The notes under the pieces were generated by a model that saw only the letters and a program-made list of their open reading frames with translations, ran no database searches and was not told the origin of the DNA. From a virus (lineage: Duplodnaviria; Heunggongvirae; Uroviricota; Caudoviricetes), in IMG/VR virus record IMGVR_UViG_2875722834_000006: 42,851 bases of DNA, one strand, 5' to 3'. Shown here piece by piece: positions 29,890 through 34,005 of this stretch (positions within the stretch are counted from its first letter, which is position 1; every line of letters starts with the position of its first letter). A program made the position numbers and the translations under genes.

Positions 29890-31827
29890 TCAGGCGGCTG
29901 CACCCGCCTTTTGATTTGCACATAATTCAGGAAGATTTGCTTCTACCAGCGCACGAGCGAACGGCGGCGGTACTGCGTTACCACAGCGCGCTACCTGCTT
30001 GTCTTTGGCGTAACGATTGCCGCGATAGTCCTGATCGATAACGTAGCCGTCAGGGAAGCCCTGCGCCTTATAAAGCTCATGCGGTTGCAGCATGCGCATT
30101 CCGATATCGACGATCTGGTACTTAACCCCCTCGATCGTCACCAGCCATTCATCCTCGCTATCACCGCAGTAGGTTTCGAGGAATGTCCGGACCTCGCCAA
30201 CGTGCTGGCCACCAGCGGTAATCGTCGGCATAGGTGTATCCATGGTCTGACCGTCGCGGCAGGTTCCGCGCAGCTTCACCAGGTGCGACGCAACTACCGC
30301 GTGGTGATCAACAGTAGTGACTGAGTGGGCAGGCTCATCCATACCAACACCCGGCCCCGTGTAATTCCCACCATAGTGCTTCGCCAGGAACGCGCTCACC
30401 GTTGCAAACTTATTACCACCAGCAGTGACCGTGCCGAGCGGGTTATTCAGTTGAAGAACACGCGGTTCTTGCCCTGGGCGTTCGCCGTACCCCATCTGGA
30501 TCAGTGTTGGAGTTACCAGCTGCGACTTACCGCCACCACCTGCAGTAATCGTCGCACTCGGTTCGTCAGCCCTGTGCCCAACACTGGCTCCAAACTGGCG
30601 GGCGATGACCGGCGCAACCACGCACGCGCGGGACTGCTTGAGGATTGTATGAGCGGGTTTATCCAGCGGGCGCGGCTTTGCCTGGTACTCACTGCCGCCA
30701 TTGCCAGCCAGGAACGGTGTCAGGGCGGCCTCAACTACGCCAAGCGCATGCCCATTCCCGCCCGGGCGCGCCGACGTACCAGCGGTGACAGTTGGTACCG
30801 GCTCGGTCACTGGCTGCCCGGTGGCCCCGGTGCGGAATTTAGTAAGATGCGGTACCGCCAGTGCGTAGCCATGCTTTTTAGTGATGGTCTGCAATGGCTC
30901 TAACAACGATTGCCCGCGGAAACAGTCATAACCTCCTTTCGTCGTGGTGTGGTTACACTTCACGATGAAAGGTGATGCGCTTTCGATAACAAAGCGCTGG
31001 ATGCCGCGCGCGATACGTTTGAGCGTATTTTCCGCCAGCGGCTTTTTGCGGTCGAAGATGGACCGGGCCGGGATATTCCAGTCAATGCACTCCGCCGCGG
31101 TACGCCATGGCGCCAGCTTGCCGCTTTGTACTTCCAGTGATTTTGGATCCCCATGAGTCGCTTCAGGCCAATGAATCTTGCGGCCGTCACAGCGCATGAC
31201 CATGAAGAAACGCTTTCTGATCGTCGGCGCGCCGTAGTCACATGCGCGCAGCTCCCGATAATCAACCTCATAACCAAGCCCGGCGATCAGCTGTTGCGCC
31301 TGCTGGCCGTGCGGCTCAATGGCAAGGAATTCACAAACCTCAGCCAGCGCAGGGTGATTCGCCGCGATCCCCGTCGACAGCATGCCGACAAATGCCTCGA
31401 ATGTTTCGCCAGCACGCTCAGGATCTGGGCGTAATTCTTCATCCAGCAGCGGGCCCCATGTCTTAAACTCTTCGACGTTCTCCAGCATCATGACGCGGGG
31501 ACGTACTGCCAGCGCCCAGCGCAGGACAATCCACGCCAGCCCGCGAATCTCTTTCTTAACCGGCTTAGCGCCCTTCGCCTTGGAAAAGTGGCGGCAGTCA
31601 GGGCTAAACCAGGCCAGACCGACAGGTTTACCGCTGGTGGCTGCGCTTGGGTCAACGTCAAACACCGACTCGCAATAATGCAGCGTGTCAGGGTGATTCG
31701 TCTTATGCATCGCAATAGCGTTTTCGTCGTGGTTGATAGCGATATCCACGCTACGCCCGATCGCCAGTTCAATGCCGGTACTCGCGCCGCCGCCACCAGC
31801 AAAGTTATCAACGATAATTTCACGCAT
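29890..31827 (-). CDS. DNA (cytosine-5)-methyltransferase with extended, internally repeated variable region
   Basis: Motif I FAGGGG, PC motif (SPDCRHFS), ENV (MLENVEEF), motif VIII (YGAPTIRKRFFMV), motif X (GNAVPPP); four T(I/V)TAGG-containing modules between VIII and IX. Confidence 0.85.
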   Translation of the reverse strand: MREIIVDNFAGGGGASTGIELAIGRSVDIAINHDENAIAMHKTNHPDTLHYCESVFDVDPSAATSGKPVGLAWFSPDCRHFSKAKGAKPVKKEIRGLAWIVLRWALAVRPRVMMLENVEEFKTWGPLLDEELRPDPERAGETFEAFVGMLSTGIAANHPALAEVCEFLAIEPHGQQAQQLIAGLGYEVDYRELRACDYGAPTIRKRFFMVMRCDGRKIHWPEATHGDPKSLEVQSGKLAPWRTAAECIDWNIPARSIFDRKKPLAENTLKRIARGIQRFVIESASPFIVKCNHTTTKGGYDCFRGQSLLEPLQTITKKHGYALAVPHLTKFRTGATGQPVTEPVPTVTAGTSARPGGNGHALGVVEAALTPFLAGNGGSEYQAKPRPLDKPAHTILKQSRACVVAPVIARQFGASVGHRADEPSATITAGGGGKSQLVTPTLIQMGYGERPGQEPRVLQLNNPLGTVTAGGNKFATVSAFLAKHYGGNYTGPGVGMDEPAHSVTTVDHHAVVASHLVKLRGTCRDGQTMDTPMPTITAGGQHVGEVRTFLETYCGDSEDEWLVTIEGVKYQIVDIGMRMLQPHELYKAQGFPDGYVIDQDYRGNRYAKDKQVARCGNAVPPPFARALVEANLPELCANQKAGAAA

Positions 31828-33154
31828 TGACGGCCCCCTGCATGCTGTTGAAGAGACCACCAGCGGTCGTGATAATTTCACTCGTCGGCATACGTTCGAG
31901 CCACAGCTGGTTGATATTGGCTTTCAGCTTGTTCTGCTGCGAAACAGGTAGAGCGTCAGCCCCTTCAATCTGGTTAAACACCAGTCCAACCTCAAGAGGC
32001 CAAACGCGCGATTCGTTTAACGCCTTGTCCTTTGATTCCTGCGTCTCACGGACATGGGCGCGGATCCCCCGAATATTTGACCATTTGGCTTTATCCAGGC
32101 TTTCCATGGTCGCGATGAATTCACTGTGGTTAATGCCGTATTCTTTCGCAGACTCAACGGCAACCGTGCGTAACCGCTCTGACATGTCTTGTTTCACGTC
32201 ATCGCTATCAAAGGGCAATGTTTCCAGCCATGCATTAACACCCACCAGGATGCTCTCGCTGATCAGCTTTTTCGCTCTGTCGATCGTCAGCGGTGAAACA
32301 TTGGTAAATTCAGGGTTTTCCAGAGAGTCGGCAGCCCAGGTATGACCAAACTTTGACTCGCTGAAGGTGTACTCGTCTTTCTTGCCGAACGCCGCGACAA
32401 CACAGGCCCAAGCCTCTACACCGCTGGTTTCCAGAATGGCTTTTTGGGTTAATGGCAGTTCTGCCTCTGATTTCTCCGGCACTACCTCAGCGTCCAGCTC
32501 CGGCGCCGCATCAGTTTGCGTTCTTCCCACGGCAAATTGGGCCAGCGACATCGCAGCACGGCCTTTGGCCTCCAGGTCGGTGCGGTTGATGTAACTGAAA
32601 CGCTCACCCCGCCATGTTTTGTCGAAGACCACGATAGCGCCAGCAAAAAATGCGCTGGTGGGCTGCTGCTTTTCGTCTTTCGGCACGAACCATGTAGGAA
32701 GATCGAAACCAATTCGGCCACGGATGAATGTGACGTGATCTGCCTCTACCGGCCACCACGTTTCACTCGTCGCAGACTTAATGAGAAAAACGTACCGACC
32801 ACCCTTTTCTCGCATGGCCATAGCGTGGTTAATGATGTGGGTCATTCCGGTAACGGCCTGCTTGTCGTGGTACTGAGAGCGGCTGTAAGGCGGGTTGCCA
32901 AACCCGGCACCACCGAGTTCTGCCAGCCGCTCTGACCAATCCTGCATCAGGGCATTATCTTCAGCCGTGTACCATGCTGGGCACTTCGCGTTGCTGTCGT
33001 CGGCAAAAAGGTCCAACACCAGAGGGCCGAACATCGCATTGATCCCCCAAAACAACAGATCCGGAGTGCGCCATTGATCACCGACCTCTTTCAACTCGTG
33101 TGCTGGTTTTGAACGGAGTTCAGCCAGTGCACGGCAGTATTTATTTTCCATCAT
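31820..33154 (-). CDS. Phage-type DNA N6-adenine methyltransferase (Dam family) with about 250-aa C-terminal extension of unknown function
   Basis: N-terminal DQWRTPDLLF and NPPYS motifs characteristic of phage Dam family; long uncharacterised C-terminal half. Confidence 0.7.
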   Translation of the reverse strand: MMENKYCRALAELRSKPAHELKEVGDQWRTPDLLFWGINAMFGPLVLDLFADDSNAKCPAWYTAEDNALMQDWSERLAELGGAGFGNPPYSRSQYHDKQAVTGMTHIINHAMAMREKGGRYVFLIKSATSETWWPVEADHVTFIRGRIGFDLPTWFVPKDEKQQPTSAFFAGAIVVFDKTWRGERFSYINRTDLEAKGRAAMSLAQFAVGRTQTDAAPELDAEVVPEKSEAELPLTQKAILETSGVEAWACVVAAFGKKDEYTFSESKFGHTWAADSLENPEFTNVSPLTIDRAKKLISESILVGVNAWLETLPFDSDDVKQDMSERLRTVAVESAKEYGINHSEFIATMESLDKAKWSNIRGIRAHVRETQESKDKALNESRVWPLEVGLVFNQIEGADALPVSQQNKLKANINQLWLERMPTSEIITTAGGLFNSMQGAVNA

Positions 33155-34005
33155 CCTCTGAACCCCTCTGGAATCTTGCTATCAACCGGACCGAACTTCA
33201 TCGGGTCATGTTTCTTTTCACCCCAGCTGTCACGCGGTGGCCGCCCCTTCTTGTCCCAGCGGATCCCGCTTTGCAGATAACCTTCAAATTTTTTCGGACC
33301 GAAGAGCGTTTCAGGACGCATGTACTGGTACTGCACGTCATTGCCGTTCCAGTGCTCATGCTTAAGGTCGATCACCAGCTGTAAGTCGCTAACGGTGTAA
33401 CCTTCACGCAGACGAGCACGGATGTTTTCCAGAGAAGTTTTTGATTTTTGGTATCGTGAGCCACTAACCAGGTTCAGATGATTCAGAACCAGGATGGCGT
33501 TATCGGTGATCATCACTTCAGGGTCTGGTTGCGGCGCAACCGGACAAGAAGGTTTTTTAACTGATGGATCAGTAGTTGTATTTACTGACGGATCCCCCCC
33601 AGATTCTGACGGGTGAAAACCGCCTTTTTCATCGTTTTTTGATGCCTCAGATTTTGACGCGTCGGTTTTTGAGGCATCAGATTTTGATGCGTCAGAATCT
33701 GACAGGTGAGAAAAGGCAGCAGCCTGCAATTTAGCAACATTGAGCTGGTAAACGTTCGATGCATTTCGGTTGCCTTTACGGCGCTGCTGGCGGGTTAACC
33801 AACCATCTTTTTCCAGCTGAGATATGGCTGTACGAACCGTGCTCTCACCAGCACCAATCTGGCGCGCGATGGTAGCGATGGAAGGCCAGCTAACCCCTTC
33901 ATCACTGCTGAAGTCTGCCAGACGCGCCATGATGGCAACGCTGGATAGCTTCATGCCAGAAGCGGCACAAGCATCCCAAACGTAACCCGTTAATTTAGTG
34001 CTCAT
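33151..34005 (-). CDS. Replication initiator-like protein (N-terminal winged HTH, central SDASK repeats, conserved phage C-terminal domain)
   Basis: HTH segment GVSWPSIATIARQIGAGESTVRTAISQLEKDGWL; DNA-level iteron-like repeats inside gene; position after cro/CII-like genes. Confidence 0.65.
   Translation of the reverse strand: MSTKLTGYVWDACAASGMKLSSVAIMARLADFSSDEGVSWPSIATIARQIGAGESTVRTAISQLEKDGWLTRQQRRKGNRNASNVYQLNVAKLQAAAFSHLSDSDASKSDASKTDASKSEASKNDEKGGFHPSESGGDPSVNTTTDPSVKKPSCPVAPQPDPEVMITDNAILVLNHLNLVSGSRYQKSKTSLENIRARLREGYTVSDLQLVIDLKHEHWNGNDVQYQYMRPETLFGPKKFEGYLQSGIRWDKKGRPPRDSWGEKKHDPMKFGPVDSKIPEGFRG
33640..33710. repeat. Iteron-like repeats (GCATCAGATTTTGA(C/T)GCGTC and inverted partner) inside initiator gene; candidate ori
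   Basis: Repeated TCAGATTTTGA units at about 33647 and 33678 with flanking inverted TTTTTGA(T/G)GC(C/A)TCA. Confidence 0.45.

Follow-up and report, generated by a model that had tools for sequence, protein, structure and literature searches.

In the 42,851-nt stretch of caudoviricete DNA analysed here (IMG/VR record IMGVR_UViG_2875722834_000006; hereafter the window), one minus-strand gene encodes a Dam-type DNA adenine methyltransferase (MTase) whose catalytic domain is followed by an extension made of two autonomous all-helical modules, M and C, which differ in where they occur and in how they evolved. Profile-profile comparison matched module C to the N-terminal domain of large cytosine-C5 methyltransferases (C5-MTases) of the type found in Pectobacterium phage ZF40, and a C5-MTase gene directly follows the Dam gene in the window. 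We place high confidence in the domain architecture and in the homology of module C. Given the homology of module C to the N-terminal domain of the neighbouring C5-MTase in related phages, the adenine and the cytosine enzyme may be physically coupled in their action. The reading of the protein as a modular orphan Dam of a lambdoid E. coli prophage, with M as an interaction module and C as a detached C5-MTase domain that couples both enzymes, is one to which we give roughly even weight. The gene and its parts, all on the minus strand, are as follows.

31820..33154, minus strand: complete open reading frame (ORF), Dam-linker-M-connector-C, with its stop codon at 31820-31822; full-length copies occur in E. 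coli genomes and viral contigs.
32525..33154, minus strand: Dam catalytic domain, aa 1-210, matched by PF05869 and TIGR01712.
32462..32524, minus strand: acidic, proline-rich linker, aa 211-231 (RTQTDAAPELDAEVVPEKSEA), poorly conserved and of low predicted local distance difference test score (pLDDT).
32045..32461, minus strand: module M, aa 232-370, delimited by alignments A1 and A2; pLDDT about 85-95.
32012..32044, minus strand: connector, aa 371-381 (TQESKDKALNE), where pLDDT dips to 67-75.
31823..32011, minus strand: module C, aa 382-444, covered by phrog_16025 and by PDLC03332 positions 235-296, and aligned by hhalign to the ZF40-type extension.

The ORF is intact, starts with ATG and encodes 444 aa. 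As the sequence-only reading had proposed, it is a genuine in-frame fusion of Dam to a large C-terminal extension, the roughly 235 further residues being folded and under selection. That reading had also named a sequencing frameshift, which would make the extension a separate ORF, as a possible source of error. Such an artefactual fusion was ruled out by the recurrence of the full-length gene in E. coli genomes and viral contigs, together with purifying selection in every module. The full-length gene was found in 13 of 5,426 complete E. coli genomes (96.6-99.9% identity; RefSeq label 'phage N-6-adenine-methyltransferase') and, among viral contigs, in at least 35. A stable 444-aa form has been maintained in E. 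coli, Enterobacter, Buttiauxella and Mixta, with a low ratio of nonsynonymous to synonymous substitution rates (dN/dS) in each module.

On its profile matches, the Dam domain is a complete T1/VT2-type catalytic domain and a member of PF05869/TIGR01712. The signatures DQWRTPDLLF (aa 26-35, nt 33050-33079) and NPPYS (aa 87-91, nt 32882-32896) were read directly, with the catalytic (D/N)PPY motif IV present as NPPY at aa 87-90. Pfam PF05869 (Dam) matched aa 19-199 (nt 32558-33100) with an E-value of 1.7e-42 and 145 bits (cut-off 28.1) over profile positions 3-167 of 169, and NCBIfam TIGR01712, 'phage N-6-adenine-methyltransferase', matched aa 16-197 with 200 bits (cut-off 97) over positions 2-164 of 165. 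Because the characterised relative M.EcoVT2Dam targets GATC (PMC6602927), the domain is expected to methylate GATC. The Pfam scan of the window protein returned no ParB-family match, whether for the ParB/Srx fold or the ParB helix-turn-helix (HTH), and the protein shows neither the recognisable HTH nor the basic DNA-binding surface of a restriction-modification controller (C) protein or HTH regulator.

The extension had first been described as one large C-terminal domain with no recognisable motif. Instead, it consists of M and C, parted from Dam and from each other by fast-evolving, low-confidence joints; the boundaries were drawn from an alignment of relatives (A1) and a residue recount, and for M also from a second alignment (A2). 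AlphaFold2 applied to aa 230-444 gave twelve helices in two confident bundles with a mean pLDDT of 87, while in the full-length model the Dam part fell below 50 owing to a shallow alignment. The absence of motifs held as far as curated domain libraries are concerned, in that aa ~200-444 have no Pfam, NCBIfam or PDB-sequence match, and failed for aa 382-444, since the last ~63 aa are covered by the PHROG profiles phrog_111 and phrog_16025 and by the PADLOC profile PDLC03332. It is therefore only this segment, the tail of Dam proteins of ~295-299 aa, that turned out to be a common known domain of the family, and not M. Per-module dN/dS values computed against diverged full-length homologs show purifying selection on Dam (0.04-0.11), M (0.05-0.29) and C (0.04-0.22). 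In the joints, identity in diverged pairs is 24-35% for the linker (dN/dS mostly 0.26-0.67) and 11-18% for the connector (dN/dS 0.59-0.86).

Module C is a three-helix unit with the conserved pattern SRVWPLEV...INQLWLERMP..EII..AG, for which no Pfam match at E <= 1 and no C5-MTase motif was found. The nearest outgroup is phage ZF40, in which gp21, a 717-aa C5-MTase, starts MSIWPTEV... and runs into motif I. With a module C hidden Markov model (HMM), the match to this ZF40 extension was colinear but weak (9.6 bits, E 0.11 among 2,148 ORFs). When 32 distinct ZF40-type extensions were compared with 177 distinct C modules by hhalign, the probability was 96.7% and the E-value 4.3e-10, with columns 2-55 aligned to columns 2-55 (54 colinear columns). 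On the strength of this colinear profile-profile match, we judge module C to be homologous to the N-terminal domain of ZF40-type C5-MTases. The distribution of C has the form of a Rosetta-stone pattern, in which one domain is part of a C5-MTase, free, or carried by the upstream protein. In the literature searched, we found no description of C as a detached C5-MTase domain common to four MTase families.

The arrangement of the genes next to the Dam gene is as follows.

29890..31827, minus strand: C5-cytosine methyltransferase, 645 aa (PF00145, E 2e-20), with motifs I FAGGGG, IV SPDCRHFS, VI ENV, IX QGFPDGY and X GNAV.
31820..31827, minus strand: 8-nt overlap ATGCGTGA, in which the Dam stop lies within the first C5-MTase codons; the same junction occurs in Kp4866-6.
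33151..33154, minus strand: 4-nt ATGA start/stop overlap with the upstream replication gene, read from the sequence.
33151-34005, minus strand: upstream replication gene (HTH_36 and Phg_2220_C).

The claimed overlap with both neighbours was thus borne out, and the genes are tightly packed. Upstream, the ATG of Dam (33154-33152) shares bases with the TGA (33153-33151) that ends the replication gene; downstream, the Dam TGA (31822-31820) falls inside ATGCGTGA, where the ATG at 31827-31825 opens the C5-MTase (MREIIVDNFAGGGG). Klebsiella phage Kp4866-6 uses an identical C5-MTase start and junction. The mechanically called C5-MTase ORF (29890-31881) begins at GTG 31881 and would encode 663 aa; the conserved ATG at 31827, giving 645 aa, was taken as the start because the ORF of the homologs cannot extend further upstream.

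Module C and the C5-MTase are closely linked in the locus samples, which comprise the best matches per query and are phylogenetically redundant. The gene after module C in the 80 best viral loci is a C5-MTase in 66, RusA in eight, an antirepressor in five and another gene in one. Among 66 species-representative genome loci (nearly all Enterobacterales), a C5-MTase follows in 56, and free-standing module C is followed by one in 31 of its 34 loci. In a reverse search with the N-terminus of the C5-MTase of Klebsiella phage Kpn_R1 as the query, module C directly preceded the C5-MTase in all 80 viral loci, its stop lying -11 to +8 nt from the MTase start; it was a free ORF of ~85 aa in 50 of these, attached to Dam or Dam-M in 15 and to other proteins in 15. 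These other carriers are methyltransferases as well, namely a DPPH-motif S-adenosylmethionine (SAM) MTase and an MT-A70 protein (PF05063, E 9e-24). An obligatory succession of C and C5-MTase was considered and is untrue, as 14 of the 80 viral and 10 of the 66 genome loci lack the C5-MTase. The C5-MTase family is broad: at a coverage of at least 80% it takes in 103 phage records, spread over many phyla, and only its enterobacterial clade is accompanied by module C.

We propose the following mechanism. Module C would not be part of Dam by descent and would belong to the adjacent large C5-MTase, from which, in most Enterobacterales prophages, it would have split off as a free ORF of ~85 aa whose stop overlaps the MTase start. 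In the window lineage, the split-off C would have become fused, in frame, to the end of the preceding gene, and it may still pack against the C5-MTase core. Dam-M-C and the C5-MTase would be made together, translationally coupled through the 8-nt overlap, and could form a tethered unit for N6-methyladenine (m6A) and 5-methylcytosine (m5C) modification on replicating phage DNA that confers protection from restriction. Module M, inserted between Dam and C, would most likely serve protein-protein interaction or oligomerisation and not DNA binding or catalysis. That module C acts with the C5-MTase seems to us an evenly balanced proposition. A fuller version can be put forward tentatively and is, in our estimate, rather unlikely to hold in every part: C would be a docking domain that moved from the C5-MTase, Dam-M-C and the C5-MTase core would form a two-headed m6A/m5C complex, three unrelated families of adenine MTase would each have come to this arrangement independently, and M would provide a second interaction surface, for example for recruitment to replicating phage DNA.

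Several observations weigh against a dedicated partnership of C and the C5-MTase. ST64B, LLS and the viral locus L086 keep C, as Dam-C or Dam-M-C, without a C5-MTase downstream and with a dN/dS of 0.20, so C may serve its carrier methyltransferase or have an unrelated role. No C was detectable in distant members of the C5-MTase family, for example that of Aeromonas phage LPM4 (50% identity), and C is therefore not generally required for catalysis. Moreover, the locus counts are not independent events, given that the samples are best-match and redundant, and the tight linkage could reflect mere co-inheritance of a cassette.

The retention of C without a C5-MTase fits another account, which we regard as possible though improbable, namely that C is a generic MTase accessory domain, acting in cis with its carrier enzyme and in trans when free, and not a dedicated C5-MTase partner. 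Such a domain might bring the enzyme to a common factor of host or phage, for instance the replisome, or it might favour dimerisation. Its fusion to four methyltransferase families (Dam, DPPH-MTase, MT-A70 and C5-MTase) and the purifying selection on Dam-C in ST64B-type phages, which have no C5-MTase at all, are in line with this account. It is opposed by the unfailing adjacency of C and C5-MTase in the 80 loci found with the MTase query and its 85% frequency in the loci found with C, by the near-constant presence of a C5-MTase after free C (31/34), and by the finding that no short PF05869 Dam gene lacking the cassette was seen to have C.

The modules are also mobile with respect to one another. 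Relatives combine them as Dam-M-C, Dam-C (Kp4866-6, 317 aa), Dam-M (P0016), ParB-like-M and C alone (Klebsiella phage Kpn_R1, 86 aa). That the modules recombine independently follows from L086: its Dam and M are 99% identical to those of the window protein (dS ~0), and its C only 82% (dS 0.52); RusA takes the place of the C5-MTase downstream in this locus. This mosaicism raises the question of whether the fusion is a neutral by-product of lambdoid recombination, with M and C as passengers and without functional consequence. Every module combination exists, with breakpoints in the linkers; the C5-MTase is an optional cassette, Dam-M-C being followed directly by an antirepressor in five loci (L029 and L040-L043); and M is also found free-standing. 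However, in-frame fusion of C has recurred, both with the C5-MTase itself and with upstream MTases of three unrelated families, and the 444-aa form has remained stable in all four taxa named above with low dN/dS in every module, and we therefore think neutrality a poor explanation. Separately, in P0002 (205 aa) an internal deletion has left the first ~43 aa of Dam fused straight to the latter half of M, followed by C; this protein is an example of the degraded derivatives of the Dam-M-C gene that circulate in metagenomes.

The sequence-only reading had suggested that the extension adds specificity, regulation or a second activity. Although its lack of matches in curated domain libraries leaves it formally compatible with a role in Dam target-sequence specificity or a second catalytic activity, we consider either highly improbable, in that the modules are small helical bundles without catalytic motifs, M is acidic, relatives of ~200 aa have neither module, and no match to a fold or family points to catalysis or to recognition of DNA. 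The idea of regulation survives as the narrower idea of coupling, module C being matched to the N-terminus of ZF40-type C5-MTases and nearly always found with a downstream C5-MTase.

Module C corresponds to phrog_16025 and to the last 60 positions of phrog_111 and of PDLC03332. The profile phrog_111 matched the window protein with an E-value of 5e-98, and PDLC03332 did so in two stretches, aa 2-223 (positions 1-224) and module C (positions 235-296), leaving M as an insertion. Module C is encoded in at least 569 viral contigs and ends hundreds of 'phage N-6-adenine-methyltransferase' proteins of ~295-299 aa from Enterobacter, Citrobacter, Salmonella (ST64B Sb44) and others. In assemblies sampled at one genome per species, it occurred in 66 loci from about 55-60 mostly Enterobacterales species, as a free ORF in 34, as Dam-C in 18, as a DPPH-MTase-C fusion in seven, as Dam-M-C in six and in another form in one. 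Two Dam-M-C loci of enterobacterial type were assigned to a Geobacteraceae metagenome-assembled genome (L179, DAINBV010000046), with a module C 100% identical to that of the window, and to Chryseobacterium sp. 18061 (L197); these assignments likely reflect contamination or mis-binning and not a real host range.

Module M carries the hallmark LPL..IL..SG.EAWAC..AAFG.K.EY.F.ESK..HTWAADS ... W.N.R..R and is very rare: an exhaustive phmmer search of 1.84 billion cluster representatives recovered 17 clusters, and four records only of the phage collection contain it. Its partners are PF05869 Dam domains of several lineages and ParB-HTH proteins of ~435-446 aa, or it has none, as in the free-standing P0126 (184 aa), located within a contig of 98 kb. 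Paralogy of the two genes of 184 aa in L009 was considered and rejected. In the window protein, M has an isoelectric point (pI) of 5.0 and a net charge of -7, and its homologs range from pI 4.4 to 6.0 and from -1 to -14; such consistent acidity, as calculated from sequence, argues against DNA binding by M. In prophages, ParB-M proteins occupy the same slot as Dam, the order in L177 being rep, PerC, ParB-M, RusA, ANT, DUF968 and Q. We considered whether M is tied to a downstream DNA-modification enzyme, as the DpdA-like gene of Pantoea phage AH07 might suggest, and ruled this out because other genes follow elsewhere: RusA after ParB-M in L177, a LexA-like gene and RusA after Dam-M in L014, and DUF968 after Dam-M-C in L015. 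Given these varied neighbours, M is not tied to a particular downstream enzyme. That M is an oligomerisation or recruitment module is a speculative assignment that we consider doubtful. In the literature searched, no description of M as a rare module shared with ParB-like proteins was found. Three more distant Dam-M-like proteins (P0134, P0135 and P0136; 469-505 aa) keep ESKFAHTW.ADS without the cysteine of WAC and appear to have two helical repeats after the M hallmark, P0135 also having a CxxC...CxxC insert. From these features, the M family may be built of an N-terminal motif unit and a repeatable helical unit.

Around the Dam gene, the window encodes a cI-like repressor, CII, the replication gene, the C5-MTase and a Rha/ANT antirepressor, and this gene set identifies the locus as the early-right operon of a lambdoid prophage. 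Within the replication gene, positions 33632-33696 contain a 15-nt unit repeated four times in tandem (77% matches); in translation, these copies give an SDASK-type peptide repeat midway along the HTH/Phg_2220_C replication protein. The lambda ori sits inside gene O, and by analogy the repeat copies could be origin iterons.

The module structure explains several mis-sized or mis-named genes in phage annotations. Prompted by the ST64B annotation, we considered whether module C corresponds to E. coli K-12 YfdM (yfdM, b2356; L016:4113-4388), and this was rejected, since YfdM (91 aa) aligns to the Dam domain, with 80% identity to aa 2-90 of the window protein, and ends after NPPY. By this alignment, YfdM is only an N-terminal fragment of a PF05869 Dam domain. 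A preprint (10.1101/413146) describes YfdM as a 'putative Dam methylase' that the T1-like phage SW1 requires. Lacking half the catalytic domain, YfdM is unlikely to be an active methylase, and the SW1 phenotype would thus need another explanation. Dam homologs in PP925827 (Flotzy), PP925821 (Eeyore), NC_004313 (ST64B sb44) and NC_031940 are labelled 'phosphoadenosine phosphosulfate reductase', a propagated misannotation that apparently originates from phrog_33262, whose profile positions 283-490 correspond to a Dam domain. Free module C ORFs of ~85 aa are labelled 'putative DNA methyltransferase'; these micro-ORFs have no catalytic domain and are not methyltransferases.

Phage orphan methyltransferases are one of the main escape routes from host restriction and are usually treated as independent single-domain enzymes. 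The present analysis defines two previously unannotated domain families, M and C. Of these, C is a small conserved domain that shifts among three states, built into a C5-MTase, standing free as a micro-ORF or forming the tail of adenine-type MTases of three unrelated kinds, a classic Rosetta-stone signature of interacting proteins. If the tethering is true, it would offer a natural means of coordinating two different modifications of phage DNA that has just been replicated. Coupled m6A/m5C modification is thus a specific, testable hypothesis, and no new mechanism is demonstrated by it.

Compared with known systems, the window protein resembles the T1/VT2-Sa type Dam enzymes (M.EcoVT2Dam, SfV Dam) over aa 1-210, with a full-length match and the DQWRTP and NPPY motifs; the Dam proteins of SfV and of Stx2 phages are 72-73% identical to it over aa 1-203 and have the same early-right operon position. 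These enzymes differ in being single-domain proteins of ~165-205 aa, whereas the window protein has ~235 extra residues in two folded modules. The Dam-C proteins of ~295-299 aa (ST64B Sb44, the Mtase of Citrobacter phage phiNP, and Enterobacter and Citrobacter proteins) share the same Dam, are 75-87% identical in C and usually have the same downstream C5-MTase as the window. These proteins, represented by PDLC03332 and phrog_111, differ from the window protein in that they are without the ~140-aa module M inserted in it. The window gene thus belongs to a Dam-C sub-architecture already captured in PADLOC and PHROG profiles, and the inserted M is its rare feature.

Module M is shared with ParB-like proteins of lambdoid prophages that have it at their C-terminus, namely gp48 of Pantoea phage AH07 and P0122-P0125 (41% identity, E 1e-26), and that likewise occupy the slot after the replication gene. 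DpdB is a homodimer that has a ParB fold and a helical C-terminal domain (PMC10164549), and the ParB-like-M proteins are like it in combining a ParB fold with a helical C-terminal domain. In AH07, where the two genes span L001:3272-5346, gp48 lies directly upstream of gp49, a DpdA-like gene labelled 'archaeosine tRNA-guanine transglycosylase' for which no Pfam match at E <= 1 was found; by analogy, the gp48-gp49 pair may be a phage counterpart of the DpdB-DpdA pair for 7-deazaguanine DNA modification.

A C5-MTase acting with a second polypeptide has precedents in M.AquI and M.EcoHK31I, which need a small polypeptide from the same locus that supplies missing motifs, either IX, or IX-X plus part of the target-recognition domain (PMC3404938). 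The window pair is of a different type, as its 645-aa C5-MTase has motifs I, IV, VI, IX and X itself and C supplies none. A further comparison is with ZF40, whose gp21 is 53% identical to the window C5-MTase in the core and has an N-terminal segment of ~55 aa that is, by its profile match, homologous to module C. There, C and the C5-MTase form one covalent chain, and gp20, the DPPH-MTase encoded upstream, is without a tail, whereas in the window C is carried by the upstream Dam protein and the C5-MTase begins ~8 residues before motif I.

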